From: a bacterium
Lineage (GTDB): Bacteria > Bacillota_I > Bacilli_A > Izemoplasmatales > UBA1188
Length of the DNA: 64,000 nucleotides
Reading direction: 5' to 3'
NCBI GenBank assembly: GCA_017960565.1
Contig: JAGCYY010000009.1
Location: 70,874 to 134,873, forward strand
A model generated the notes under the pieces. That model saw only the letters and a list, made by a program, of their open reading frames with translations, was not told the DNA's origin and searched no databases. The translations under genes and the position numbers were made by a program. Numbering within the stretch: position 1 is the first letter of the stretch; each line of letters begins with the position of its first letter. Positions 2,219 through 44,603 of the stretch are shown piece after piece.

Positions 2219-3886
2219 TTACATAATGCCATAAGGTAGGCCATTTTCATCGATTCCCATATGTTTTGCGACAGGGTCAATTGGAAGTCCAGGCATTGTG
2301 ATAATTTTGCCAGTATAGACTACAAGAAAGCCAGCGCCAAGAGAAAGACTCACGTCTTTTACATGAATAACGAAATCTTTTGGAGCACCAAGAACTTTTG
2401 CATCATCAGTTACAGAATTCTGGGTTTTAGCCATACATACTAAGAGATTTGAATATCCCATTTTCTTATATAATTCAAGTTTTTCTTTAGCTTTATCTGA
2501 AAATTCAACATCTTTAGCACCATATGCTTTATTTGATACCTTTTTGATTTTTGTGATTAGATCATCTTCTATTTCATAAAGATATCTCAATTTCATATCT
2601 TTATTCTTTTCCATAACTTCTAATACTTTATTCGCAAGGTTAATGCCTCCATTTCCACCATCTGTATGAATAGATGCTAGACTGTATGGATAATTCTTAG
2701 AATCTAGATAATCTTCAAGTGCTTTAATTTCTTTTCGAGTATCCGTATCAAATTTATTTATGGCAATTACGAATGGCTTATTGAAGTTTTTGATAGTTTC
2801 AACATGTCTTTCTAGATTATCAAGTCCTTTAATTAGTGCATCTACATTTTCTTCTTTTAGATTTTCAACTAAAACACCACCATGCATCTTAAGGGCTCTT
2901 ATTGTCGCAACAAGCACAACACATTTAGGATCGATTCCTGATACTCTTGCTTTGATATCTAAGAATTTTTCACAGCCAAGATCAGCACCAAATCCACCTT
3001 CAGTTACAACTATCTTAGATAATCTCATCGCATATTTTGTAGCCATAATTGAGTTACAACCATGAGCAATATTCGCAAATGGTCCACCATGAACGATTGC
3101 TGGACCACCTTCTACTGTTTGAACAAGATTAGGTTTGAAGGCATCTTTTAGTAATAATAATAAAGCACCTGTAATATTTAATTCTTTAAGTCTTACTTCT
3201 TTTCCATCTTTAGTATATGCAACTAAGATGTTATTGAGTCTATTTTCTAGATCTTTAAAATCATTCGCAAGACAGAATACAGCCATGATTTCTGAAGCAA
3301 CTGTGATAGAGAAAGAATCTTTTCTTTCGACACCATTGATTTTTGAACCTTGACCGATGGTGATATCTCTTAAAGTTCTATCATTTACATCTAAACATCT
3401 TTTCCAGACAACTCTCTCTGGATCGATATTTAGAGGTGAATTAAAATATATTTCATTATCAATTACAGCTGAAATAAGATTATTTGCGCTTGTTAGGGCA
3501 TGAAAATCACCAGTAAAATGGAAATTGATTTCATCCATTGGAAGAACTTGAGAATAACCGCCACCAGTTGCACCACCTTTTAGTCCCATTACTGGTCCAA
3601 GTGATGGTTCTCTTAAGGCTAAGCAAACATCTTTTTTTAGCTTTCTTAAGCCTTGTGCAAGACCGATAGATACTGTAGTTTTACCTTCTCCAGCTTTTGT
3701 CGGAGTTATTGCAGTAACTAAAACTACATCACCATTTTTGTTTTCTTTATTCATCACAGATTCATTTAATTTTGCTTTATATTTGCCATATAAATCATAA
3801 TCTTCTTCGCTTAAGCCAAGTTCAGATAATATTTCTGCAATCTTCCTTAATTTTGTCTCTTGTTGGACTTGTAAATCTGTCTTCAT
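2219..3886 (-). CDS. fhs: Formate--tetrahydrofolate ligase
   Basis: 555 aa. Motifs PTKAGEGKTTVSIGLAQGL, EPSLGPVMGLKGGATGGGYSQV and GGPFANIAHGCNS are characteristic of FTHFS. Confidence 0.95.
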   Translation of the reverse strand: MKTDLQVQQETKLRKIAEILSELGLSEEDYDLYGKYKAKLNESVMNKENKNGDVVLVTAITPTKAGEGKTTVSIGLAQGLRKLKKDVCLALREPSLGPVMGLKGGATGGGYSQVLPMDEINFHFTGDFHALTSANNLISAVIDNEIYFNSPLNIDPERVVWKRCLDVNDRTLRDITIGQGSKINGVERKDSFSITVASEIMAVFCLANDFKDLENRLNNILVAYTKDGKEVRLKELNITGALLLLLKDAFKPNLVQTVEGGPAIVHGGPFANIAHGCNSIMATKYAMRLSKIVVTEGGFGADLGCEKFLDIKARVSGIDPKCVVLVATIRALKMHGGVLVENLKEENVDALIKGLDNLERHVETIKNFNKPFVIAINKFDTDTRKEIKALEDYLDSKNYPYSLASIHTDGGNGGINLANKVLEVMEKNKDMKLRYLYEIEDDLITKIKKVSNKAYGAKDVEFSDKAKEKLELYKKMGYSNLLVCMAKTQNSVTDDAKVLGAPKDFVIHVKDVSLSLGAGFLVVYTGKIITMPGLPIDPVAKHMGIDENGLPYGIM

Positions 3887-7491: not shown

Positions 7492-9245
7492 TATTTTTTA
7501 TACTCCTTTTTTAGTTCCATGAGTTCTTTTGCAAGATCGATTGCTTCTTTGGAATTTAAATTATCACTCATCGCTAAGAGTTGTTGCTTCTTTATTTCAA
7601 TTATTTCTTTGATTTCTTCTTTTTTGATTGTTTTGATGATGTTTTTCTCAAGATCTTGAACAGAGAATTCAATTTTATTATTATATTTAAAATCTTTGTA
7701 TATTCCTCTTTGTTTTAGTTTGTTTATTAAATCATCTTCATTAATTAAATTGTTAGAATCATAGATATCACCGATTTCGATGAATAGTGTACGATAATTT
7801 AAATCTTTTAAGAATACTCTTGATCCAAATACATCTTCGATTGTTTCAAAATATGATTTGGAATTTATTGCATAATCAATAATCATATGTTCAGCTTTTT
7901 CGTAAGCTGTGACTATCTTAAATTTCTCATTTTGAGGATTAGTAGTTGTGAGCTTTTTTCTTTTTGGATTTAATCCTCTAGTAAATGTGCTAAAATCTTG
8001 GGAAATTGATTCATATGAGACTTTTAGATCTCCTGATAATCTTTTTAAATATGTCTCGAGGACAGATTGACTTTTTTCATTCTTGATCTTTTCAAATATA
8101 GAATTTTTAAATGATTCCATATTGAATGTATTGATGGTTGGATAATCTAGTTTTGTTAGTTCATAGAGATACCCTATCTTATCAAGACGTTTTTTAGTAA
8201 GTGCTTCTAAATATTTATCAATGCCTTTCTTTCTTATATATTCATCAGGATCTAGATTATTTTCTAAGATCGTTATTGAATAATTGATGCCAACTTCTTC
8301 AAGTCTATCTATTACAGATTTAACACCTTCTATTCCTGGTCTATCACCATCTAGACAGATAATTACATTGTTGGTATATTTTTTTATGAGTTCAGCTTGT
8401 TCATGAGTCATTGCTGTACCCATAAGAGCGATGGAGTTTTTAACACCTTTACTATAAGCTTGGATTACATCCATATATCCTTCATTAAGAATTAAATAAT
8501 TCTTTTCACGTAAGGTTCTAGATGCTCTGTCTAGATTGAAGACAGTTTTACCTTTTTCAAATATTGGTGTTTCTTTAGAGTTGGTATATTTGTTTAAAGA
8601 AGAGTCTTTATCTTTATAGATTCTTCCACCAAAAGCGATAGTTCTTCCTTGATCATCTCTAATTGGCACGATGATTCTATCTATGAAAGTATCTGCATCG
8701 CCATTTGATAAACCATTTATTACAATATCAGGGAGAATAAAGCCTTTGGATAATAATTGATTTGTGAGAGCGTTTTTATCGGATGGAGAAAGACCAATTC
8801 CAAATTCTTTTATTGTCTCAATAGTGATTCCTCGTTTTAAAAGATAATTTCGAGCTTCTTTAGAATAATCATCATTAGACATAAGGAATGTAAAGAATTT
8901 TTGAGACATTTCAAGAAGGTCATAATACCTTTTTGTCTTGTCATATTCTTGGTTAGAAAATTCTGATATATCGATATGGTATTCTTGAGCGAGCCATCTT
9001 GCAGCTTCAATCGATGAAATATGTTTAAATTTTTCAACAAATTTGATGGCATTGCCACCTTCTTTACAAGTAAAACAATGGAAAATGCCTTTTTCTCTTG
9101 AGACGCTCATCGAAGGATTGTTGTCATCATGAAATGGACAAATACCAAAGAGGTTTTTCCCCTTTGGTTCTAAGTCAACAAAGCTTGAAACTACATCGAC
9201 AATATTTACATTTTCTAGGACTTTCTCAAAAATGTTTTCGGCCAT
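7491..9245 (-). CDS. dnaG: DNA primase
   Basis: CHC2 zinc finger [30 protein letters not shown] motifs EGYMDV and DGDRPG. Upstream of rpoD. Confidence 0.95.
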
Positions 9246-26656: not shown

Positions 26657-26683
26657 AGAAAATTCCTCCTTAAATTTAATATG

Positions 26684-26764
26684 TAGGAGAGATGGGACTT
26701 GAACCCACACGGATTGCTCCAATGGTGTTTGAGACCATCGCGTCTACCCTTCCGCCACTCTCCC
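26684..26764 (-). tRNA. tRNA-Leu (anticodon CAA), type II with long variable arm
   Basis: Manual cloverleaf of GGGAGAG UG GCG GAAGGGUAGA CGC G AUGGU CUCAAAC ACCAU UGGAGCAAUCCGU GUGGG UUCAAGU CCCAU CUCUCCU A. It has U8, a GG D-loop, a TUCAAGU T-loop, and an anticodon loop CU-CAA-AC. G1-U72 wobble. No encoded CCA. Confidence 0.9.
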
Positions 26765-26775
26765 ATATATTTTTA

Positions 26776-28458
26776 TTACATCTTATCTACTAATTTCATG
26801 CCAAGAAGTTTCATGCCAAGATCTAGGCGTGATTTTATAAGATAGATAAGATATAATTTAGTATTTCTTTCAATAATGTCATCAACTAAGCATTTTTCTT
26901 TAGAATAAAAACTGTTGAATAAAGATGCTAATTGAAGTAAATATTTTGCAAGATAATTTGGTGCATATTCTTCTTTACATTTTTCGAGTATTACATCAAA
27001 TTCATCCAGTTTTTTAACGATTTCAAAGAAATCATCTTTTGATAATAACTCAAATGAGATATTGTCTTTATCAAAATCTGATTGTTTTAGAATTGATGAT
27101 ATTCTAACGCTTGTGTATTGAAGATATGGTCCTGTTTGGCCTTCAAATCTTGTCGCATCTTCAAGATTGAATTCATAATCATTTTCATGATAATTCTTAA
27201 GATCGTTGAAGATGATAGCGCTTACACCAACATTTTTAGCGATTTCATCTTTATCATCTAATGAATCATTCTTTTCTTGAATATGTTCTTTTGCGAGTCT
27301 TATTGATTCATTCAATACTTCATTTAGACCAATAGCGTTTCCGTGTCTTGTAGACATCTTCTTACCGCCAGTAAGAATTAAACCAAAATTGACGTGTGTT
27401 ACAGAATCTTTAAATGGAGCATCCATTCTTTTAAGAACTCTTTTTAATTGATTGAAATATAGTTTTTGTTCATTACCAACGCAATATAGCATTTGATCGA
27501 AATGATATTTGTCATATCTTCTATGAATTTCTTCAAGATCTCTTGTGATATAAAGAGTTGCACCATCGCTTCTTTTCACAATCGCAGGTGGTATATCATC
27601 TCCGATTCTTATGATAGTTGCTCCATTGTCAATTTCGAGAAGATTTTTCTTATCTAATAGACTAAGAACTCTATTAGAATCACGTGAAGCACTTGCTTCA
27701 CTAGAATATTCATCAAATGTAACACCTAAAAGATCATAAATTCTTTTAAATTCTTTTAGCGATGCATCTTTAAAAGATGACCATAGTGCACGATATTTTG
27801 GGTTTCCTTCTTCAAGTTCATTGAAAATTTCTCTTGCTTTATCATCTAATGATGGATCTTTTTCAGCTTCTTCATGGAATTTTACATATAGTGATACAAG
27901 TTCACTAATTGGGTTTTCCATGACTTTTTCTTTATCTCCCCAGTTTAAATATGCATAGATGAGTTTACCAAATTGTGTTCCAAAGTCACCTAAGTGATTA
28001 ATTCTTACAACTTTATAATTTAGATATTCAAAAATGTTCCCAATAGATTGACCTAAAATTGTGCTTCTTAAATGACCAATTGAGAAATTTTTAGCGATAT
28101 TAGGAGATGAATAATCTATAAGAATAACACCTTTAGGATCATTTTTTTCTTTTATAGAGTCTACGTTATCTAATATTAATTTGATAAGCTTTTCTCTACT
28201 ATAAAAGGCGTTGACATAAGGACCAACACATTCGATTTTTTCAAAATAATCTAGTTCTTCTAAATAATTTTTAATAAGAGGAGCTATCTCCATTGGACTT
28301 TTATGAAGAATTTTTGAAAGTTGAAATGAAGGGATAGCAATATCACCTTTTGTTTTATCTTTAGGATTCTCAACGACTAAAGATAGAGATAAGTTCATCT
28401 CTTCATTTACACGTTTATTTAAATATTCTTGAATTTTAATTTTTAGTACTTCTAACAT
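26776..28458 (-). CDS. argS: Arginine--tRNA ligase
   Basis: Class I HIGH-type SSPNIAKNFSIGHLRS, KMSK-type KMSTRHG, and a DALR-type C-terminus. 560 aa. Confidence 0.95.
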   Translation of the reverse strand: MLEVLKIKIQEYLNKRVNEEMNLSLSLVVENPKDKTKGDIAIPSFQLSKILHKSPMEIAPLIKNYLEELDYFEKIECVGPYVNAFYSREKLIKLILDNVDSIKEKNDPKGVILIDYSSPNIAKNFSIGHLRSTILGQSIGNIFEYLNYKVVRINHLGDFGTQFGKLIYAYLNWGDKEKVMENPISELVSLYVKFHEEAEKDPSLDDKAREIFNELEEGNPKYRALWSSFKDASLKEFKRIYDLLGVTFDEYSSEASASRDSNRVLSLLDKKNLLEIDNGATIIRIGDDIPPAIVKRSDGATLYITRDLEEIHRRYDKYHFDQMLYCVGNEQKLYFNQLKRVLKRMDAPFKDSVTHVNFGLILTGGKKMSTRHGNAIGLNEVLNESIRLAKEHIQEKNDSLDDKDEIAKNVGVSAIIFNDLKNYHENDYEFNLEDATRFEGQTGPYLQYTSVRISSILKQSDFDKDNISFELLSKDDFFEIVKKLDEFDVILEKCKEEYAPNYLAKYLLQLASLFNSFYSKEKCLVDDIIERNTKLYLIYLIKSRLDLGMKLLGMKLVDKM

Positions 28459-28537: not shown

Positions 28538-30289
28538 TTAACTTCTTTGTATATCTTTCATAATGTCACTAGGTATTTTAATCTTTCTATCCATTGTATA
28601 AAGACCATTCATTTCTTGTCTTACATCAGATAGTTGTGTATAACAATATCCAACAAATCTATTATCATCTAAGATGAGAGAAAATAAATCTTTTAACCTA
28701 TTTTCAAATTCATCTAGTGTCTTACAATCGTCGCCATAACCGAATGTGACTTTATTTTCTTCTAAAAAAGATGTACCACCAAATTCATCTAGAATGACTG
28801 GTTTATTGAATAAATATTCTCGTTTTAAAACAAACTTTCGACCTTTTTTATAATTTACAAAATTTTCATTAAAAGCTCTATCTATATCATATTTCAAACT
28901 TTCTTTATCTTGATTATAAAGATGAAGTGTGATGATATCACTATTTAAATGACTCCAGCCATCGTTTGTAGTAACAAGTCTTGTAGAATCGTATGATTTT
29001 GTCAAATCATATACTTTTTTCACAAATAATTTAGTGCCAGGATCCGATCTATCAATTCCCCATATTCCCCATGATTCATTAAATGGTGTGTATGTGATGA
29101 TCGCTGGATGATTGTAGAATTGTTTTAAGATTTCTGACCATTCTTTCATAAATCTTTTGGCAGATGATATTAAAGTTAGATACATACTAGGCATTTCAAG
29201 CCAAACGAGATATCCATAAAAATCTGCGTATGAATAATATTTTTCAATCTCAATTTTTTGATGTTTTCTCGCACCATTAAAGCCCATTTCAATCATGGCA
29301 TTAATGTCAAATTCAAGTTCTTCATCAGTCATTGTCATATCGCCATTATCGATGTAGCCTTGGTCTAAAATCAGTTTTTGATAAATTGGATGATCATTTA
29401 GATATATTTTATTTTCTTTTGTGTAAATATCTCTTATTCCTATATATGATAAGACTGTATCTGTATATTCTTTTGGAATGCCTCGTCTTAAGATATTTGA
29501 TGCGAGTTTTAATTCTATGTCATATAAATTTGGCTTTAAAATATCCCAAGGATGAAAATTTACAGAAAGAGGTATAACTACTTCTATTTCGTTCGATAAA
29601 CTTCTAAGATTTGTGACGTTATATACTAGAGTGTTCTTATAGTTAACCTTAATAGATAGATTGTTTATTATCTCATTAGATGTTAGTTCTAGTTTAAATG
29701 ATTTGGTTTTAAAAGATGGTGTTAATTTAATAGAATCGATATAGGTGTTAGGTCTTTTTTCAAGCCACACTGTTTTCCAAATACCGGTTGTCTCTTCATA
29801 CCAACACCAAAAATTGTTTTTTCTAAAACGTTGTTTACCTCTTACTTTAAGAATGCTCATATTGTCAGAAACTTTAACAGTGATATCATTATCTCCTTCT
29901 TTTAAATAATCTGTGATATCGAATGAGAATCTATGATATCCGCCAATATTTTTGCCGACATATTTGCCATTAATATATAGTGTTGTTTTATAATCGCTTC
30001 CTTCAAAAATGATGAAAGTACGATAATTTTCATCGATGGAATGATCTATTATTCTATGATACCAAACATGGTCACATCTTGTTTGAATGTTTATATTTGA
30101 TGATTTTGATAAATACGAATAAGGAACATTTATTTTATCAGAAATAGGAAAATTCTTATGAAAACCTTTGATTCTTCCCTGATTATGATAATCGAAACAA
30201 AAATCCCACATACCATCTAGAATAATGTAGTCAGATCTATAAAAGGATGGATTTGGATGGTTCTTTTTAAAACTTTTTACTTTAAACAT
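28538..30289 (-). CDS. Glycoside hydrolase family 2 protein
   Basis: GH2 N-terminal sugar-binding pattern (YIILDGMWDF, YHRFSFDITDYLKEGDNDITVKV). TIM-barrel Asn-Glu acid/base region TPFNESWGIW. Putative nucleophile region VILDEFGG. No obvious SD before the ATG. Confidence 0.8.
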   Translation of the reverse strand: MFKVKSFKKNHPNPSFYRSDYIILDGMWDFCFDYHNQGRIKGFHKNFPISDKINVPYSYLSKSSNINIQTRCDHVWYHRIIDHSIDENYRTFIIFEGSDYKTTLYINGKYVGKNIGGYHRFSFDITDYLKEGDNDITVKVSDNMSILKVRGKQRFRKNNFWCWYEETTGIWKTVWLEKRPNTYIDSIKLTPSFKTKSFKLELTSNEIINNLSIKVNYKNTLVYNVTNLRSLSNEIEVVIPLSVNFHPWDILKPNLYDIELKLASNILRRGIPKEYTDTVLSYIGIRDIYTKENKIYLNDHPIYQKLILDQGYIDNGDMTMTDEELEFDINAMIEMGFNGARKHQKIEIEKYYSYADFYGYLVWLEMPSMYLTLISSAKRFMKEWSEILKQFYNHPAIITYTPFNESWGIWGIDRSDPGTKLFVKKVYDLTKSYDSTRLVTTNDGWSHLNSDIITLHLYNQDKESLKYDIDRAFNENFVNYKKGRKFVLKREYLFNKPVILDEFGGTSFLEENKVTFGYGDDCKTLDEFENRLKDLFSLILDDNRFVGYCYTQLSDVRQEMNGLYTMDRKIKIPSDIMKDIQRS

Positions 30290-30367
30290 AAGACATAAAA
30301 TTATTAGTAGAATTTATTTTATTTTAAAATAAAGATTTAGTATTTTCAATATTAAAAGAAATAAAAA

Positions 30368-30526
30368 ATCATCACCCTAGCTACTAATAGATGACCATGG
30401 TCATCTAATACGATAAGACTTCTACTATAACATTAGGATTCAAATAATTATTTGCATTCAACACAGACTATAGTATCCATCGATAAAACAAATGTTTGGG
30501 GTCCTAAAAGTAGCTAAGATAATGAT
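30368..30526 (-). ncRNA. Candidate structured small RNA (~159 nt), rod-like with a central bubble; 6S-RNA-like architecture, class unconfirmed
   Basis: 18-bp terminal helix between 30509-30526 and 30368-30385. Three pairs are G-U only on the minus-strand transcript (C/A mismatches on plus). A promoter-like TTGAGA-17-TAATAT ends 5 nt (30531-30527) before the helix, so the helix 5' end (30526) is the 6th nt after the -10 box. UUUUUAUUCUUUU follows the helix. Internal helices and an 8-bp hairpin are described in the findings. Confidence 0.55.
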
Positions 30527-30531
30527 AATTT

Positions 30532-30560
30532 ATATTAACATAGTTTTTTATTTATCTCAA
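30532..30560 (-). promoter_or_regulatory. Sigma-A-type promoter for the candidate sRNA
   Basis: Minus strand: TTGAGA (30560-30555), 17-nt spacer, TAATAT (30537-30532). The predicted +1 coincides with the first nucleotide of the terminal helix (about 30526). Confidence 0.45.
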
Positions 30561-30632
30561 TAAAAATGGGATAAATAAGATGAATATGAAATAGTATTTT
30601 GAATATACTTCACTTTTATTTCATATTATGAA

Positions 30633-32246
30633 TTAAACAAAGTTTTTATATTCTTTAATTCCTCTTTTTTCGACTAATAAGAAGAATATTAATCCTAATA
30701 AGAAAAATAATAATCCAGAGAATATGGTTGCGAGTTCATAACTAGAAGTTAAAATATATAAAGAAAATAATGAACCTGGCATTAAAAAGAATAAACCTAA
30801 TATAATAAATGAACAGATCATTACTGATGAACTTCTTTTGATTATTTCGTGATCTTCCATATCGATTGCTGGATGTCTTAAATTGATCCATTGATAAATA
30901 TAAGTTGTAAAGAATCCAGATGATAATAATATTAAGAACGTACCAATGGCAATTCCAAGTGTTGGAGATCCAAATATCAAAAAGAGTGCATAAATAATTG
31001 TTGATGGGATGAAATAAAGAATGAGATTAAATAAGGCTTTAGATCTAAATATGATTTTAGGATTGATTGGTAAAGTTTTTACAATCCAAACATATTTATT
31101 TTCTAATGACAAAGTGAATCCACTTGATAAACTCATAGTCGAAATCAGCATTATCATTATTGGACCAATTAGCCAATATAGATTTATAGTGATACCACTT
31201 TCAACATCTTCAATTAAAAGATTATCTGAAGAAACTGATACAACTACCGCTATAACGATCATAATAATTGGCATAATTAAAGTATTTAGGATATATAAAT
31301 TATCACTAAATAATTTGCCAAATTCTTTTTTAATAAAGCCACCAAATAAATCTTTTTTCTTGTATTCGATTAGATCTTTTTTGCTTGATTGATTTGTAGA
31401 TTTTTCAAATACCATCATTCTATATGCAAAACGTTTGAATAATAGAACGAATATAATAAATAACGTTATCAATATTAGGGCATAGATAAGAAAATATATG
31501 ATATTTCCAGTTTGTATAGCAAGTTTTATAAAAATTAGTAATGGGAAATATGTGAGAATATTTTCATAAGCTATAATAGTATTTTCTAAGAATAATGGAT
31601 CCATCGAAAGCATCGATGAATATAAAGTTGAAAATCCCAATATGAAAACGATCATAAGAACGAGTCCAAAAAGTTCAAATGTACGTTTGAATTTAGATTT
31701 TTGTATAGCTTTTTTTAAGACCATTATTAAAAATGAGAAAAGAATAGTTGGGAGTATCACAGAAAGTAATGGGGCAAATAATAAAATTATTATTCCATTA
31801 ACTGTGATATCGTTGCCACCTGAAATTAGATAAGCAATAAGGCCAGAAATCCCGATGAATATCTCAAAAAATGATTCAAGAATCATAGCGGTTATGAGCT
31901 TAGCTGAGACAATCTTGCCTTCTTCAATTGGCAGTGTTCCTAAGACATCATTATCTTTTTCAGTCATAGATAGTCTACTACCTGATAAAATAATAAAGAA
32001 AAGACTTGAAATATTTACAAGAACGACAATTTGATAAATGACTTTGTCATAATTATCAACTACTGTTTTATATTGACTAAATACTTCAGAAAAATTTATG
32101 GAGAATGAATATATATAAATAGGGATTAAGATTATTAGAAGAATTAATAAAGCTTTAGAATTTGATTTTCTTTTTTGATTTGATTTAGAACCAAATCTAT
32201 ACATTTCACCTAGAAATATTTTAACTAAATCAAATATCTTGACCAT
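30633..32246 (-). CDS. Polytopic ABC exporter permease (putative ABC-exporter family)
   Basis: About 12 or more hydrophobic segments. Immediately downstream of and overlapping the ABC ATPase gene. ATG at 32246 is preceded by GGAGAAG. Confidence 0.7.
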   Translation of the reverse strand: MVKIFDLVKIFLGEMYRFGSKSNQKRKSNSKALLILLIILIPIYIYSFSINFSEVFSQYKTVVDNYDKVIYQIVVLVNISSLFFIILSGSRLSMTEKDNDVLGTLPIEEGKIVSAKLITAMILESFFEIFIGISGLIAYLISGGNDITVNGIIILLFAPLLSVILPTILFSFLIMVLKKAIQKSKFKRTFELFGLVLMIVFILGFSTLYSSMLSMDPLFLENTIIAYENILTYFPLLIFIKLAIQTGNIIYFLIYALILITLFIIFVLLFKRFAYRMMVFEKSTNQSSKKDLIEYKKKDLFGGFIKKEFGKLFSDNLYILNTLIMPIIMIVIAVVVSVSSDNLLIEDVESGITINLYWLIGPIMIMLISTMSLSSGFTLSLENKYVWIVKTLPINPKIIFRSKALFNLILYFIPSTIIYALFLIFGSPTLGIAIGTFLILLSSGFFTTYIYQWINLRHPAIDMEDHEIIKRSSSVMICSFIILGLFFLMPGSLFSLYILTSSYELATIFSGLLFFLLGLIFFLLVEKRGIKEYKNFV

Positions 32247-32958
32247 TTTCTTCTCCAAGTAATTCTAAAAATACTTCTTCTAATGATTCATCCTTTTTTA
32301 TAATTTGCATATCACCGCACTTAATTACTTCTCCATGCCTAATAATTCCTACTTTGTTGCAGATTTTTTCGGCTGTATCAAGGACATGTGTTGAAAAGAA
32401 GATTGCAGTGCCTTTTTCTGTAAGTTCTTTAAATACATTTTTGATTTTAAAAGATGCTTCTGGATCGAGGCCGACAAAAGGTTCATCTAAAACTAAAAGT
32501 TTAGGGGAATGAATTAAAGCACCAATTATCGCAAGTTTTTGTTTCATACCATGCGAATATGTGCTTATTTTATCGCCAAGTTTATTATTTAAGTCTAGAA
32601 AATTTGAGTAATATTCGATTTTTTCTTTTCTTTCATCGCTTGATAAACTAAAAGCATCTGATATAAAATTTAGATATTTAATTCCTGACATCGATTCATA
32701 AATATTTGGATTATCTGGAATATATGCAAGGATTTTTTTAGCGTCGATTGGACGTTCTTTGATATCAATTCCATCGATTTTAATAGAACCTTTTTCGAAA
32801 TCTAATAATCCTACTATGCATTTGATAAGCGTGGTTTTACCAGCGCCATTATGACCGATAAAGGCAAAAATATCTCCATTTTCAATATCTAATGAAATGT
32901 CCTTGATGGCATCTTTCTTTCCATCGTAACTCTTATATACATTTTTAATTTCAAGCAT
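32230..32958 (-). CDS. ABC transporter ATP-binding protein
   Basis: Walker A GHNGAGKTT, signature YSHGMKQKL, Walker B LLVLDEP, H-loop STHV. Confidence 0.93.
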   Translation of the reverse strand: MLEIKNVYKSYDGKKDAIKDISLDIENGDIFAFIGHNGAGKTTLIKCIVGLLDFEKGSIKIDGIDIKERPIDAKKILAYIPDNPNIYESMSGIKYLNFISDAFSLSSDERKEKIEYYSNFLDLNNKLGDKISTYSHGMKQKLAIIGALIHSPKLLVLDEPFVGLDPEASFKIKNVFKELTEKGTAIFFSTHVLDTAEKICNKVGIIRHGEVIKCGDMQIIKKDESLEEVFLELLGEENGQDI

Positions 32959-40938: not shown

Positions 40939-42147
40939 TTATCTCTCCTTGTTTTTAAGGATTGCGATGTAATTCCAATAGAAAATTGATCTATAACCAT
41001 CTTTTGGATAGACTCTATATGTTTTATCTGGAGTTGGGACTTCAAAATCTCTTCCAAGAGTTATTGTGTAATTGATTACCTTGTTATTATAGATGCAGAT
41101 GTTTTTAGATTCATCTTCTGGACATAAAAATGAGATCTTTTCTCTATCCATAATAACTTTGCCACTAAATAGTGGTTCTTCTTTTAATGATTCAAAATAT
41201 GAGAATGTTGCTTCATCTTCGAGTATTAGACCATTATCAATCTCATTTTCAAAGCTTGTTCTATCGATGTCAAATAGATCTTTTAAATCTTTATATTTAG
41301 GGTTATTTTCTTTAAACCTATAGCTGTCTTTTTCAAATGTTAATGAGAGGCCACAAGACTTACATGTCAGATTTAATTTGTTAGTTTCAAAAGGGAGAAT
41401 CTCACCACAATCAGGACATTTCATAAGAACCTTTTCAAGTCCTCTAGCTTTGTTTTTTCTCATATATTTATATTCTGGATGTTCTCTCATGATAGATAGA
41501 TCATCATTAGAATCAAATGCTTTATTCAATATTTTATTGATAGTGTCGAGATTAAGGTTATCGATATCATTTTTGTCGATCAAAAGATTAATTGAAGCAT
41601 CGACAACGCCTTTTCCTGGTGTAGGATTCCATTTAGGGCTGAATAGGTATGTTCCTTGAGGGTTGATAAAATAAACATTAGGTTTATATTTCTTTATGAG
41701 CTTATCAAGACCTGATGGGAGGATTAATGGTTTTCCATATGTGGACATTTGGCCTTCTGGAAACATCATTACATTTCTGCCAAGCTTTAGATAATCAGCA
41801 ATTCTTATTATGCTTCTCACATCATTTCGATATTGATTTTTTGGAATTGTGCCTGTGATATTTAATAAAAATTTTAGGAAATTGTTTCGATACCAATAAG
41901 TTGTCGCTACAATATGACTTCTTACAGGATATATGAGCATTGGGACAATTAGAAAATCATAATATGATCTATGAGGCGAAATAATAAGCGATGGGCCTTC
42001 TATTTTTAATTTATTCCTCATCTTTATTTTAACCATAGTTTTTATCCAAAGAATTACTAGAGGTCCTAAAATATAATAGATAAAGAAACTAGGCTTTCTT
42101 AATCTTTTCTTTTTTTCTTTTTTATTTTTATTGATGTTAGATTTCAT
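40939..42147 (-). CDS. Lysophospholipid (PlsC-type) acyltransferase with an internal zinc ribbon
   Basis: HX4D motif HRSYYD and FPEGQMS. Later CPDCGEILPFETNKLNLTCKSCG. Confidence 0.7.
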   Translation of the reverse strand: MKSNINKNKKEKKKRLRKPSFFIYYILGPLVILWIKTMVKIKMRNKLKIEGPSLIISPHRSYYDFLIVPMLIYPVRSHIVATTYWYRNNFLKFLLNITGTIPKNQYRNDVRSIIRIADYLKLGRNVMMFPEGQMSTYGKPLILPSGLDKLIKKYKPNVYFINPQGTYLFSPKWNPTPGKGVVDASINLLIDKNDIDNLNLDTINKILNKAFDSNDDLSIMREHPEYKYMRKNKARGLEKVLMKCPDCGEILPFETNKLNLTCKSCGLSLTFEKDSYRFKENNPKYKDLKDLFDIDRTSFENEIDNGLILEDEATFSYFESLKEEPLFSGKVIMDREKISFLCPEDESKNICIYNNKVINYTITLGRDFEVPTPDKTYRVYPKDGYRSIFYWNYIAILKNKER

Positions 42148-43870
42148 TGTCCAATTTACCTTTTTCTATTATATAATCAACAAATATAATTATAGTAAAA
42201 AATAAGAAAATCTCAAGCAAATATATAAAGTATTGTGGAAAAGTTTGATATGTGAAATTAACTTTGAATATATAATTTATATATTCTGAGTTGTAATATG
42301 ACATCGATAATAAGAGAATGAAGAGAATAGAGAATGTGATAAAATACATAAGATAATTGGAAAATAGAGTAGTTTTTTGAACTTCTTGTGATTTTAGGTT
42401 AGCGTGTATTAGTTTATTCTTATCTCTTTCAAAAGAGTCATCAAACTCTTTTCTTTCTCTAATATATAAGATAATCACAAATGAAGATATGAGAATAAAT
42501 AGAATTGATGCAAAGATAAATTTGAGAATGGAATATCTATATAATTCTATATTATCTTCCATCTTTCTTTTGAGTTCACCATTAAAGATTTTATTGATAT
42601 CTTGAAATGATGATTTTTTGCCGTTTTCATATATCAATATTTTCTTATATTCACTATTAATTTCTTTGTTTGTATAGATTGTTGTGCCGGTTACATCATC
42701 AATAAATGAATATATTTTAAATGTCATAATCTCATTGTTTATTGATATTTCAACATCATCGCCAATATTATGATCTATTTCATTAAATATTGTCCTTGGA
42801 ACGATTATAGCATTTTCAGGAAGATAATCGAGTGATTCAAAGATAGAAGCATTATAAAATGATTCAAATTTTGTAAGGTCTAATGATAATAGTTCATATT
42901 TTTCATTATCTAATATGACATATTCAGAGCTATTAATAACATTATATTGATATTTAGATGCTGTAATGATTTTAGATAAGATTTCGTTGGTGTCTTTTGT
43001 CTTTATGACATAGTCATATTTCAAATAATTGGTGGAATATGATAATTTTTGATAATTTGAAGAAATAAAGACTACATTGATAAACATTGCGAGAACCGCA
43101 AAAACAAAATAAACGATGTTTTTTCTTCTAATAAAGAGATAGATATATGATGATCTACGTGATAAATTAATTCTTTTTCTGATTGAATATGCATATATTA
43201 TTTTGTATATTGCTTGTGATAAAAAGATGCTTATCGATAAGACAAATAGAATATATATGATGACAGATTTATCTATGAATAAAAATAAAAAGATGGAAAG
43301 AATTGCAAATATAAAAAATACATAATCATATTTTTCTAATAATTCACTATAATTGAAATCTAAAAATGTGTATGATGCAACTATAAAAGATGCGATAATT
43401 GGAAGAATTAGAGATAAGAATATGATATAAGGTTTTATAGACATTGAATAATCATATTTATGTCTAATGATTAGATAAAGGATTAGATAAATAAAAAGAG
43501 ATATGATAATTGTGAGAATTACTGAGATTAGTGAAATGATTAATTTTGATAAGATATATAAAAGATATTTATTTCTTTTTTTGATTTGCAGGCTGGTGAT
43601 AGAATTTAATATATTTTTTTCATCTAATCTTTTTCCGGTTTGAAAAAAGAGATATATTGAGTAACATATCACTAATATTTCAATAAATAAGATGATGTTA
43701 AGTCTGTTATATTTATATATGAGAGGAAGCATTAAACCTTTTTCTTCATTCAACATAAATAAAAAAAATAGTGAGACCGAAAGAAAGAAAAATCTTAAGA
43801 TGTCCACTATAAATTTCTTTGTCGGTTTATATGAAATTTTAAAGGCATATTTAAAGATACTAGAGTTCAC
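42137..43870 (-). CDS. Large polytopic membrane protein, probable FtsX/MacB-type permease partner (tentative)
   Basis: GTG start. Many N-terminal TM segments, a ~170-aa extracytoplasmic domain, and a C-terminal 3-TM bundle with RERKEF...ANLKSQEVQK, loosely like the FtsX domain. In a single-copy version its start would overlap the stop of the upstream ABC-like gene. Confidence 0.55.
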   Translation of the reverse strand: MNSSIFKYAFKISYKPTKKFIVDILRFFFLSVSLFFLFMLNEEKGLMLPLIYKYNRLNIILFIEILVICYSIYLFFQTGKRLDEKNILNSITSLQIKKRNKYLLYILSKLIISLISVILTIIISLFIYLILYLIIRHKYDYSMSIKPYIIFLSLILPIIASFIVASYTFLDFNYSELLEKYDYVFFIFAILSIFLFLFIDKSVIIYILFVLSISIFLSQAIYKIIYAYSIRKRINLSRRSSYIYLFIRRKNIVYFVFAVLAMFINVVFISSNYQKLSYSTNYLKYDYVIKTKDTNEILSKIITASKYQYNVINSSEYVILDNEKYELLSLDLTKFESFYNASIFESLDYLPENAIIVPRTIFNEIDHNIGDDVEISINNEIMTFKIYSFIDDVTGTTIYTNKEINSEYKKILIYENGKKSSFQDINKIFNGELKRKMEDNIELYRYSILKFIFASILFILISSFVIILYIRERKEFDDSFERDKNKLIHANLKSQEVQKTTLFSNYLMYFITFSILFILLLSMSYYNSEYINYIFKVNFTYQTFPQYFIYLLEIFLFFTIIIFVDYIIEKGKLDNEI

Positions 43871-43990
43871 TTAAGATACCTTCTTCAATGACAAATTTCT
43901 AAATTTCTTTGTCGGTTTATATGAAATTTTAAAGGCATATTTAAAGATACTAGAGTTCACTTAAGATACCTTCTTCAATGACAAATTTCT
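43811..43990. repeat. Perfect 90-bp tandem duplication (2 copies: 43811-43900, 43901-43990)
   Basis: Direct comparison shows both copies are identical at all 90 positions. The unit spans the ATPase-stop/permease-start junction. Confidence 0.98.
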
Positions 43991-44603
43991 TTGTGGCATA
44001 TTTTAACATATTGATATTTGTCGTAGTATGGAACATTGCAATATGAAACATACTATTGATAGTGTTTAACATTTTAAATATTTCATCTTGATGAGGTTTT
44101 GTTAGAAATTCAAAAGCGTTATCAATTAATAAAATAAAAGGTCTAGATATTATCGCTCTTGCAATACTTATTTTTTTTCTTTCGTATGGGTTAAGGTCGA
44201 TTGGATATTTATCTAATAAAGTTGCGATATCTAGAGTTTTAATTACTTCATTAAAATATGCTTTATCGATTTCAACTCTATTTATTTGTTGCGGAAGAGT
44301 GATATTTTCTTTTATTGAAAGATTAAAAAATAGATAATCATTTTTATCGATATATGATATATCTCTTGCGTGCCATTCATCGATATCATTTCTATTATAT
44401 TTGTTTATAAGTTCATCAAAATAGTAGATTTCTCCATCTACTGGCTTTTTTTCAAGATAAATAGCTTTTAATAATTGTGATCCTTCATGCTCATTTGAAT
44501 AGAGTACTAATGTATCACCTTCAGATACACTAAAAGAAATATTATCAATGAAATAATCATTATTTACATTTATCTTTAAATTTTTTGTTTCAATAATGTT
44601 CAT
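43950..44603 (-). CDS. Degenerate ABC ATPase-like protein (catalytic motifs lost)
   Basis: ABC NBD fold pattern with degraded motifs. Walker A position reads LYSNEHEGSQLL (no GK[ST]). Q-loop region YIDKND has no Gln. Signature is LNPYERKK instead of LSGGQ. Walker B is ILLIDNAF (Asp kept, catalytic Glu replaced by Asn). Confidence 0.7.
   Translation of the reverse strand: MNIIETKNLKINVNNDYFIDNISFSVSEGDTLVLYSNEHEGSQLLKAIYLEKKPVDGEIYYFDELINKYNRNDIDEWHARDISYIDKNDYLFFNLSIKENITLPQQINRVEIDKAYFNEVIKTLDIATLLDKYPIDLNPYERKKISIARAIISRPFILLIDNAFEFLTKPHQDEIFKMLNTINSMFHIAMFHTTTNINMLKYATKKFVIEEGILSEL

Follow-up and report, generated by a model that had tools for sequence, protein, structure and literature searches.

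A narrowly distributed structured RNA upstream of a GH2 gene in an uncultured rumen bacterium, possibly a 6S-type decoy

Background

By definition, 6S RNA is a rod of 160-200 nt in which a large central bubble separates a closing stem from an apical stem (PMC8876501, PMC8414754). In E. coli 6S RNA, unwinding of the downstream helix frees its 3' strand, which pairs with the 3' part of the central bubble to give the release hairpin (PMC8876501). The 6S RNAs of lactic acid bacteria are encoded in a rarA/uspA neighbourhood and are best conserved in the part that codes for the pRNA, whose hallmarks are a purine start, GG at positions 4/5 or 5/6, AA at 9/10, and an adenine beside the start (PMC8414754). 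Ms1 is a 6S-related actinobacterial RNA that binds the RNA polymerase core (PMC9130861).

The RNA described here, from an uncultured rumen bacterium, is of the same size class as 6S RNA (SsrS; RF00013), with its 159 nt at the short end, and has the same rod shape and a bubble bordered by G-C pairs. As in the E. coli type, opening of the closing-side helix is predicted to let its 3' strand pair with the bubble's 3' half in a hairpin, and the best-conserved stretch likewise lies where a pRNA template would be. The hairpin form shares with B. subtilis BsrA/6S-1 and the lactic acid bacteria consensus the closing stem, the large 5' bulge, the opposed hairpin and the apical stem. Unlike 6S RNA, it has no covariance-model or sequence similarity to that family, is known from three lineages only, has a closing stem that directly precedes a U-tract and so is also a terminator, and has apical internal loops that are strictly conserved in sequence. 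Its genomic context is not that of the lactic acid bacteria genes, and it differs from the Firmicutes 6S-1 RNAs in lacking the AA at 9/10, the similarity to the pRNA GUUCGGUCAAAACUA (PMC12005410) being not above chance. The likeness to Ms1 is that of a lineage-restricted, rod-like RNA in a 6S-like niche where canonical 6S RNA is undetected (PMC9130861). The two belong to different phyla and have no sequence or model similarity. Ms1 is also much longer than the RNA at 30368-30526.

The RNA gene and its surroundings

The window (the whole 64-kb stretch of DNA that was analysed) has a 343-bp gap at 30290-30632 between two minus-strand ORFs. ORF 30633-32258(-), on the ABC permease side, matches ABC2_membrane_4, and ORF 28538-30289(-) matches GH2 domains, with its start at 30289. 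A patch rich in G+C, pointed out in this gap by an earlier note on the same DNA, is indeed there, with 27-29% G+C at 30350-30549 compared with 16-20% in the flanks. The features of the gap, in the direction of transcription, are the following.

30583-30630, minus strand: AU-rich hairpin 3' of the ABC permease stop codon, on which a miRNA model gives a spurious match
30532-30560, minus strand: RNA promoter, with the -35 box TTGAGA at 30560-30555, a 17-nt spacer and the -10 box TAATAT at 30537-30532
30368-30526, minus strand: structured RNA of 159 nt, with nt n at window position 30527-n; fold z = -3.6
30363-30367, minus strand: U-tract, UUUUU and then AUUUCUUUU, directly 3' of the closing helix; presumed intrinsic termination site
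30321-30349, minus strand: promoter-like box TTGAAA-17-TAAAAT, located 3' of the RNA and before the GH2 start at 30289, with 10/12 matches

The AU-rich hairpin is probably the end of the upstream ABC operon, and at the equivalent position, just 5' of the RNA promoter, the orthologous contigs L082 and L105 have canonical G+C-rich terminators. The RNA promoter was found as it had been described earlier, with the closing helix beginning at the 6th nucleotide after the -10 box. It is of the extended -10 type, the 17-nt spacer being closed by TG at 30540-30539, and L003, L105 and L082 keep the TTG of the -35 box and the ATTATG, with the -10 box in the same place. At the other end, the 3' arm of the closing helix is followed directly by UUUUUAUUUCUUUU, for which the earlier string was one U short (a trivial difference), and the U run is invariant in all lineages. 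Since the U-tract lies directly 3' of the closing helix, this helix doubles as an intrinsic terminator. Sequence and comparison together place the putative transcript boundaries at the start of the closing helix and at the U-tract. The RNA would be transcribed independently as a molecule of about 160-165 nt from a conserved promoter of the sigma-A type with an extended -10 element, starting at or beside the first base of the 18-bp closing helix and ending at the U-tract 3' of the same helix. The comparison supports the earlier proposal that the minus strand encodes a discrete structured RNA, which has a conserved promoter to itself and ends in a helix and U-tract.

The promoter-like box between the RNA and GH2 aligns with a counterpart in L082, TTGAAT-17-TAGAAT, and is missing in L003/L105, whose spacer measures 16 nt. 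Such matches are not above shuffle expectation in the AT-rich DNA of the window.

Secondary structure

The minus strand folds at -45 kcal/mol (z = -3.6), with none of 200 shuffles as stable, and the plus strand at -32 kcal/mol (z = -2.8). Of all short-range inverted repeats in the 64-kb window, the one at the ends of this RNA ranks in the top three by length. The predicted structure is an irregular rod, in which closing helix P1 (18 bp) and helix P2 (7 bp) make up 25 bp, the central loop has about 18 nt on its 5' side and about 20 nt on its 3' side, and the apical arm has 3 + 9 + 4 + 5 bp (21 bp) and internal loops that are invariant. G-C pairs border the central loop in an otherwise AU-rich RNA. 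The structural elements, all on the minus strand, are listed below.

30509-30526, minus strand: closing helix P1, 5' arm (nt 1-18), pairs with 30368-30385
30500-30506, minus strand: P2 5' strand UAGGACC (nt 21-27), pairs with nt 131-139 and so lengthens the closing helix when the RNA is a rod
30482-30499, minus strand: central loop, 5' side (nt 28-45, CCAAACAUUUGUUUUAUC), within which CCCCAAACA is invariant
30417-30481, minus strand: span of the base of the apical arm, a 3-bp helix (G46-C110, A47-U109, U48-G108) of 30481-30479 with 30419-30417
30467-30475, minus strand: middle helix, 5' strand (nt 52-60), pairs with nt 96-104
30441-30454, minus strand: apical hairpin CAAAU-AAUU-AUUUG (nt 73-86), between the invariant loops UGUGUUGAA and GAAUCCUAAU
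30423-30431, minus strand: middle helix, 3' strand (nt 96-104), pairs with nt 52-60
30388-30407, minus strand: alternative 8-bp hairpin UAGAUGAC-CAUG-GUCAUCUA (nt 120-139), whose 3' strand is the P2 3' strand (nt 131-139)
30368-30385, minus strand: closing helix P1, 3' arm (nt 142-159), a terminator-like end together with the U-tract

Most of these pairings agree with the earlier description. The two P1 arms are complementary over 18 nt, with 15 Watson-Crick pairs and three positions that pair as G-U only on the minus strand, and the pairing of UAG/GACC with GGUC/CUA, the perfect 8-bp hairpin, the pairing of UACUAUA with UAUAGUA and the apical hairpin are all found as given there. The proposed helix of CGAUGG with UCUUAUCG fared less well. 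It is present in the window, but it is not conserved, only 62% of its cells pairing across the lineages, and it is replaced by the 3-bp helix at the base of the apical arm. In that helix (GAY:GUC) 100% of cells pair, with variation of U-G to C-G.

Conservation and covariation

Homologues of GH2, ArgRS and the ABC permease were followed to contigs, which gave two further lineages and one strain variant, and the comparison rests on three independent lineages at one locus. Orthologues of the RNA were found only in two other rumen lineages, L003/L105 and L082-84, where they score 186-188 bits with model R1. The gene order in every lineage bearing an orthologue is ABC permease, RNA, GH2, ArgRS. Contigs L104, L106, L107 and L090 end before the RNA position, and a scan of the genome collection with ArgRS gave two close genomes, one of which also ends before the RNA. 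More distant ArgRS loci have no RNA homologue, and model R1 with filters off did not find the RNA in 65 kb of ArgRS-linked DNA from relatives with 70-78% ArgRS identity. The same model, again with filters off, detected only short terminator hairpins beyond the RNA itself in the window and the relatives' loci. The pattern AGGACCCCAAAC-N(75-105)-GACCANGGTC had no matches in viral contigs, and its eight matches in JGI metagenomes are all due to chance as judged by model R1.

The RNA is 81-83% identical across lineages, compared with 78-80% for the ArgRS gene, 64-67% for the permease gene, and 17-65% for the spacer flanking the RNA. The spacer from the U-tract to GH2 varies both in sequence and in length (16, 78 and 85 nt). 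Compensatory double changes are seen at nine base pairs in three helices, compared with 0-1 in register-shifted controls, with statistics that are weak because there are only three independent lineages. In P1 three pairs have compensatory double changes and five have G-U/A-U changes, so that the 18-bp helix proposed earlier is both conserved and covarying in relatives. The middle helix has five compensated pairs, and in the apical hairpin the pair U77-A82 is replaced by C-G in L003/L105. The earlier strand call also stands, since the covarying helices have about 20 cells of the G-U type and about five of the A-C type on the minus strand. The longest invariant blocks are nt 15-34, which includes the P2 5' strand (invariant in all lineages), and nt 131-145; the invariant blocks of the RNA are ACUUUUAGGACCCCAAACA, UUUGAAUCCUAAU and GGUCAUCUAUUAGUA. 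The RNA is a real, new structured RNA family with a very narrow known range, and it is probably a stand-alone, functional structured sRNA gene.

Two alternative folds

GGUCAUCUA can pair either with UAGGACC, forming P2 of the rod, or, within the loop's 3' half, with UAGAUGAC, forming the 8-bp hairpin. The predicted energies of rod and hairpin lie within 0.8 kcal/mol of each other in each of the four sequences, and when nt 20-33 are blocked in the energy model the hairpin form becomes dominant with P1 intact. Folding thus supports the earlier suggestion that a hairpin on the 3' side and the inner part of the closing stem compete with each other. Since the segments involved are invariant, covariation cannot decide between the rod and the hairpin. 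The variation that does occur in the alternative hairpin consists of C128U and U130C in its loop, one change of A-U to G-U, and one substitution that breaks the terminal pair 120:139 in L003/L105.

Possible function as a 6S-type decoy

6S RNA leaves RNA polymerase by this kind of switch between two folds, and a 6S-type RNA polymerase decoy is for this reason taken as the leading mechanism, a tentative choice that is possible rather than probable and that does not imply membership of the 6S family. The rod with its open central loop would mimic an open promoter and sequester the sigma-A RNA polymerase holoenzyme. With rising NTPs, the polymerase would copy the invariant 5' loop and the P2 strand, and a start opposite C33, which is assumed, would give the product 5'-GUUUGGGGUCCUAA. 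Copying would unwind P2 and free GGUCAUCUA, so that the 8-bp hairpin could form and the enzyme be released, as in the E. coli type of 6S RNA. The hypothetical pRNA template would be nt 28-45, a role assigned by inference from position. The putative template and the switch strand coincide exactly with the longest invariant blocks. Of the pRNA hallmarks, with the start assumed at C33, GG at 5/6 fits and A34 is adjacent, and AA at 9/10 is lacking.

The overall shape that had been described, a closing stem, a large central loop and an apical arm, is supported by covariation in P1, the middle helix and the apical hairpin. The 6S-like reading built on that shape holds in part: the architecture and the release-type hairpin match published 6S RNA, but the RNA has no similarity to the 6S covariance model and its known range is narrow, whereas 6S RNA is normally broadly conserved. 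In transcriptome data 6S RNAs make up about 1-2% of reads. The 6S model RF00013 gave no match at its gathering score in the 64-kb window and none at E<=10 on stretches of 501 nt or 181 nt. Over all families of Rfam 15, the best scores were 8-20 bits against thresholds of 40-102 bits, from unrelated eukaryotic or cyanobacterial models. The Rfam check proposed in the earlier note therefore gave no match to any family, 6S included, even at E<=10, and the alternative offered there, a different or undescribed class of sRNA, is fully compatible with the data. Homology to the pRNA template of B. subtilis 6S-1 (GUUYGG..UC..AAAA.UAG, by eye) was considered and rejected, its score of 15 being exceeded by more than 100 of about 6,400 window tiles, the best of which scored 22.

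Other points counted against the 6S-type reading are that the RNA is always beside GH2 in three closely related lineages, and that GH2 in L003/L105 starts 16 nt past the U-tract without a promoter of its own. That the apical internal loops are invariant hints at a partner that recognises their sequence, for which 6S RNA has no obvious need. If the RNA is a 6S-type decoy, it would extend this global regulator of transcription to a Mollicutes-related, AT-rich branch of the Bacilli where the standard model finds nothing, and would be a compact version of 6S RNA in which the closing stem doubles as terminator, with a concrete prediction for the product RNA, 5'-GUUUGGGGUCC...

Alternative explanations

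The main rival reading is that the RNA acts in cis, as leader or attenuator of GH2 and perhaps also of ArgRS behind it. A single transcript would start at the promoter, and a ligand or protein that binds the conserved loops or shifts the balance of rod and hairpin would tune read-through into GH2; the closing helix and U-tract would stop most polymerases, and the terminated 160-nt RNA would be a by-product. The RNA lies directly 5' of GH2 on the same strand in every lineage that bears it, and in L003/L105/L107 the U-tract is followed by the Shine-Dalgarno sequence and, at 16 nt, the ATG of GH2, with no promoter-like box between. Because a strong ABC-operon terminator lies 5' of the RNA, GH2 there can be reached only from the RNA's promoter. 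This start codon, 16 nt past the U-tract in one lineage, keeps a cis-regulatory reading alive and makes the label "orphan" used earlier questionable. Attenuating riboswitches and leaders share with this RNA the same-strand position 5' of a catabolic gene, the helix and U-tract and the conserved loops, and bistable pairing combined with invariant internal loops is typical of sensing RNAs. The terminator here, however, is the outermost helix and has no competing antiterminator: the only conserved alternative pairing (P2/hairpin) leaves the 18-bp terminator helix intact, and full-length, truncated and constrained folds gave no conserved antiterminator for either of its arms. The spacer to GH2 is also not conserved, and in two of the three lineages (the window and L082, with spacers of 78-85 nt) an aligned, separate promoter-like box follows the terminator. 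GH2 homologues elsewhere with <=56% identity, including one directly before ArgRS in L095, are without the element, and with one genomic context only and no Rfam match, the riboswitch signature of the same RNA before varied related genes is missing. A leader function is on balance rather unlikely. A sugar-linked form of it is very doubtful: a new riboswitch or protein-responsive attenuator of unusual layout, with P1 as terminator, in which the isoenergetic P2/hairpin switch, set by a carbohydrate-derived ligand in the invariant loops, would govern how fast the outermost helix closes and with it the read-through into GH2, and in one lineage into everything downstream. A leader of any kind would make the RNA one of the rare sensors linked to a glycoside hydrolase, here in the fibre-degrading community of the rumen.

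A stand-alone RNA that binds another protein or complex, or is a component of a ribonucleoprotein unique to this clade and unrelated to RNA polymerase, is an unlikely explanation. The partner would recognise the invariant apical loops UGUGUUGAA and GAAUCCUAAU, and the long closing helix would shield the RNA from nucleases. It draws on the same independent-transcription features and covariation as the 6S-type reading, and would account for internal loops whose sequence is invariant beyond the needs of shape alone and for a range as narrow as that of the neighbouring ABC-2/12TM permease operon, but no gene for a partner protein is evident among the adjoining genes, the repeated short motifs typical of protein-titrating RNAs are lacking, and the conserved isoenergetic switch is left unexplained. 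C-rich-loop sRNAs of Firmicutes pair with the G-rich ribosome-binding regions of target mRNAs, and the invariant, C-rich, single-stranded ACCCCAAACA in the 5' loop may be such a seed. The segment with its CCCC is unpaired and invariant although the genome has 27% G+C, which, like the RNA's own promoter and terminator, fits trans-acting base pairing. Such a role is nonetheless quite improbable: the 64-kb window has no other TGTTTGGGGT site (<=1 mismatch), 160 nt of covarying structure far exceeds what a seed carrier needs, and the rod form ties up half of the seed in P2. There would be no RNA gene at all if the region were a miniature inverted-repeat mobile element, or if the repeat had arisen by chance in AT-rich spacer DNA. 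The 18-bp terminal inverted repeats around about 120 bp would suit such an element, and inverted repeats are numerous in the AT-rich window, but this reading is largely refuted and has barely any probability left, given a single copy in the window and in all loci compared, orthology at one locus in three lineages, ends without target-site duplication, and compensatory changes in three helices, including internal ones, together with strand-specific G-U pairs, neither of which would be expected by chance or from ends that bind a transposase. If the RNA is neither a 6S decoy nor a leader, it is a new, covariation-backed structured RNA family that is useful for annotating rumen MAGs, with a wider impact limited by its very narrow known range.

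Some smaller features of the RNA are recorded here for completeness. A T-box-like AGGGUG in the 3' arm was rejected as a candidate, as it is not conserved in the other lineages. The apical arm contains a 10-codon ORF that is not conserved, and the hairpin contains a 6-codon ORF that has no ribosome-binding site and is conserved.

A structured RNA gene between the permease and GH2 genes

The minus strand carries nearly all long ORFs of the window, and G+C is about 25-30% across the profiled interval 29000-32000. Along this strand a nucleotidyltransferase gene and a hypothetical gene are followed by these features:

32230-32958, minus strand: ABC ATPase gene
30633-32258, minus strand: ABC-2/12TM_1 permease gene
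30290-30632: 343-bp gap holding the RNA gene
28538-30289, minus strand: GH2 glycosidase gene
26776-28458, minus strand: ArgRS gene
26683-26764, minus strand: tRNA-Leu(CAA) with a long variable arm, directly after ArgRS

The elements from which the earlier note had built a minus-strand RNA are present in the gap: a G+C-richer patch (27-29% vs 16-20% in the flanks), two complementary 18-nt arms in which three positions pair as G-U only on the minus strand, a TTGAGA-17-TAATAT promoter with the helix starting at the sixth base after the -10 box, and the internal pairings. A U-run lies directly 3' of the 3' arm, the note's copy of this tail being short by one U, and the promoter additionally has an extended -10 TG. 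The minus-strand fold reaches -45 kcal/mol (z = -3.6; none of 200 shuffled sequences is as stable), and the plus-strand fold -32 kcal/mol (z = -2.8). Since AT-rich DNA commonly holds inverted repeats, the decisive evidence must be comparative.

Conservation and covariation

The RNA is 81-83% identical between lineages, compared with 78-80% for the ArgRS gene, 73-76% for the GH2 gene, 64-67% for the permease gene and 17-65% for the flanking spacer. RNAalifold recovers the rod from three lineages. Among four distinct sequences, 95.7% of cells are paired, and both-sided changes occur at nine pairs vs zero to one pair in register-shifted controls. The closing helix holds three of the nine, the middle helix five and the apical hairpin one; with three independent lineages behind them, the counts are indicative rather than a formal significance test. 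G-U cells (about 20) far exceed A-C cells (about 5), which settles the strand as minus without recourse to the promoter or U-tract. One helix proposed earlier, CGAUGG/UCUUAUCG, is not conserved (62% of cells pair) and is replaced by a 3-bp GAY:GUC helix, so that the central loop measures about 18 nt on the 5' side by 20 nt on the 3' side.

Transcription unit and flanking signals

The promoter position is conserved across lineages, with -35 variants TTGAGA, TTGTAC/TTGTGC or TTGAGT, and ATTATG provides the extended -10 TG. The ABC operon ends just upstream, at a canonical terminator in L082 and L105 (related loci) and an AU-rich hairpin in the window, so the RNA needs its own promoter. The U-tract behind the closing helix is invariant, and this helix doubles as the terminator. 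The structured RNA first seen in the sequence is real, and represents a new covariation-supported RNA family with its own promoter. The RNA-GH2 spacer is 78-85 nt in the window and L082, with an aligned promoter-like box. In the L003/L105/L107 lineage a deletion of about 60-70 nt removes this box and leaves the GH2 Shine-Dalgarno (GGAAAGG) and ATG only 16 nt past the U-tract, so that GH2 there is reachable only by read-through.

Window: promoter-like box TTGAAA-17-TAAAAT
L082: promoter-like box TTGAAT-17-TAGAAT
L003 8182-8204, L105 3892-3914 and L107 1-49: site of the deletion ahead of GH2
Window 30608-30624, minus strand: conserved block ATGAAATAAAAGTGAAG, past the permease stop codon and ahead of the RNA promoter
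L003 ~7931-7955, L105 ~3641-3665 and L082 ~3669-3686: counterparts of this block

The conserved block is a direct repeat, RTGAA-N6-GTGAA, nearly unchanged in L003/L105 and similar (GTGAATGAATAGTGGAAG) in L082. In the window it makes up one side of the AU-rich hairpin; it may bind a regulator or belong to the operon end.

Distribution

Related loci were reached through ArgRS, GH2 and permease homologues. In the species-representative collection, two rumen MAGs, RUG448 and RGIG6850, come closest, with 81-82% ArgRS identity; relatives at the next level, labelled Acholeplasmatales, Anaeroplasma, Izemoplasmatales or Bacilli, stand at about 50%. This places the source among the Bacilli, as an uncultured rumen bacterium related to Mollicutes. 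The RNA occurs in two further lineages, L003/L105 (with the fragment L107) and L082/L083/L084, and every RNA-bearing lineage has the order permease, RNA, GH2, ArgRS. The ArgRS neighbourhoods of L090, L092, L094 and L095 (70-78% ArgRS identity) lack it; gene order there differs, and model R1, a search model of the RNA, found only terminator-like hairpins even with filters off. GH2 homologues with 56% identity or less do not have it in front of them, and scans of JGI metagenomes and viral contigs with a pattern of two invariant blocks gave no real match. Among the 5.8 billion proteins of one database, the permease family is confined to the same three lineages, with only four protein clusters and a mutual identity of only 50-55%. 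The presence and absence across these loci place the known range in one genus-level clade at one locus, as judged from ArgRS-, GH2- and permease-linked loci of relatives and pattern scans rather than whole genomes.

The permease is the last gene of a fast-evolving, clade-restricted transporter operon (upstream to ~35038) that ends where the RNA gene begins. In L095 (396-3787) GH2 is followed directly by ArgRS, without the RNA, at 70% ArgRS identity. In L092 (3783-5489 and 10001-11680) the GH2 homologue belongs to another sugar-gene cluster, and infC-rpmI-rplT precede ArgRS. A tRNA gene, its identity checked in the window only, also follows ArgRS in L003 (11697-11778), L082 (7544-7625), L090, L092, L094 and L095, so that every relative with at least 70% ArgRS identity keeps it there, including those whose upstream gene order has changed.

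A predicted two-state element

GGUCAUCUA (nt 131-139) can pair with UAGGACC (nt 21-27), lengthening the closing helix, or alternatively with UAGAUGAC (nt 120-127) to form an 8-bp hairpin. Constrained folding puts the two states within 0.8 kcal/mol in all four sequences, though the remaining sequence differs, and the 18-bp terminator helix is untouched in both. The hairpin is predicted to form first in nascent-transcript folds, and blocking nt 20-33, which mimics a 14-nt product, is predicted to give the hairpin form. Natural variants are C128U and U130C in the hairpin loop, one A-U to G-U change, and one that breaks the terminal pair nt 120:139 in L003/L105. All remaining switch bases are invariant, as a three-way constraint predicts, so covariation cannot test the switch. 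The 3' hairpin also contains a six-codon mini-ORF, AUG/GUG ACC AUG/ACG GUC AUC UAU UAG (window 30384-30404, minus strand; nt 123-143), kept in all lineages, with a synonymous change (ACC to ACU) among its differences; since it lacks a ribosome-binding site, it probably persists only because the hairpin is conserved.

Comparison with 6S RNA and possible functions

6S RNA forms a rod of 160-200 nt, built of a closing stem, central bubble and apical stem, which the housekeeping holoenzyme uses as template for short pRNAs; pRNA synthesis opens the closing-side helix beside the bubble (PMC8876501, PMC8414754). In E. coli-type 6S RNA the freed 3' strand and the 3' half of the bubble form a 9-bp hairpin that drives release, and in Firmicutes a hairpin lies opposite a large 5' bulge (PMC8876501, PMC8414754). 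The rod, bubble and predicted competing hairpin of the RNA agree with these descriptions, bearing out the 6S-like architecture suggested earlier; the Rfam 6S model gave no match. The RNA has G-C pairs at both loop edges, and its unchanged blocks are longest over the putative template and the switch strand. The pRNA hallmarks fit it only in part, and its resemblance to B. subtilis 6S-1 pRNA (sequence: PMC12005410), striking by eye, is no better than chance. By sequence it has no Rfam likeness, and its design comes closest to that of a compact 6S RNA; since a model match, a defining feature, was looked for and not found, 6S family membership is not established.

The RNA may act as a 6S-type RNA-polymerase decoy, which we tentatively rank first given the 6S architecture, the competing hairpin, the nt 20-33 blocking result and the invariant template and switch blocks. 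Our estimate is held below even by the missing 6S-model match, the chance-level pRNA resemblance, the partial hallmarks, the narrow range and the constant position beside GH2, and every step beyond folding into a bistable rod is one that we infer. A leader or attenuator of GH2 seems rather unlikely: the read-through-only GH2 16 nt past the U-tract in L003/L105/L107 argues most strongly for cis-regulation, whereas the variable RNA-GH2 spacer and the second promoter-like box argue most strongly against it.

A structured RNA that binds another protein is a doubtful reading, placed just behind the leader. A base-pairing sRNA acting through the invariant CCCCAAAC stretch is improbable; this stretch has no target in the window. 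Single-copy orthology and internal covariation contradict a mobile element or chance repeat, which we regard as very improbable.

Elsewhere in the window, a perfect tandem duplication (two 90-nt units, 100% identical; 43810-43989) sits at the junction of the minus-strand ORFs 42137-43870 and 43950-44603; it may have arisen recently or reflect an assembly artefact.
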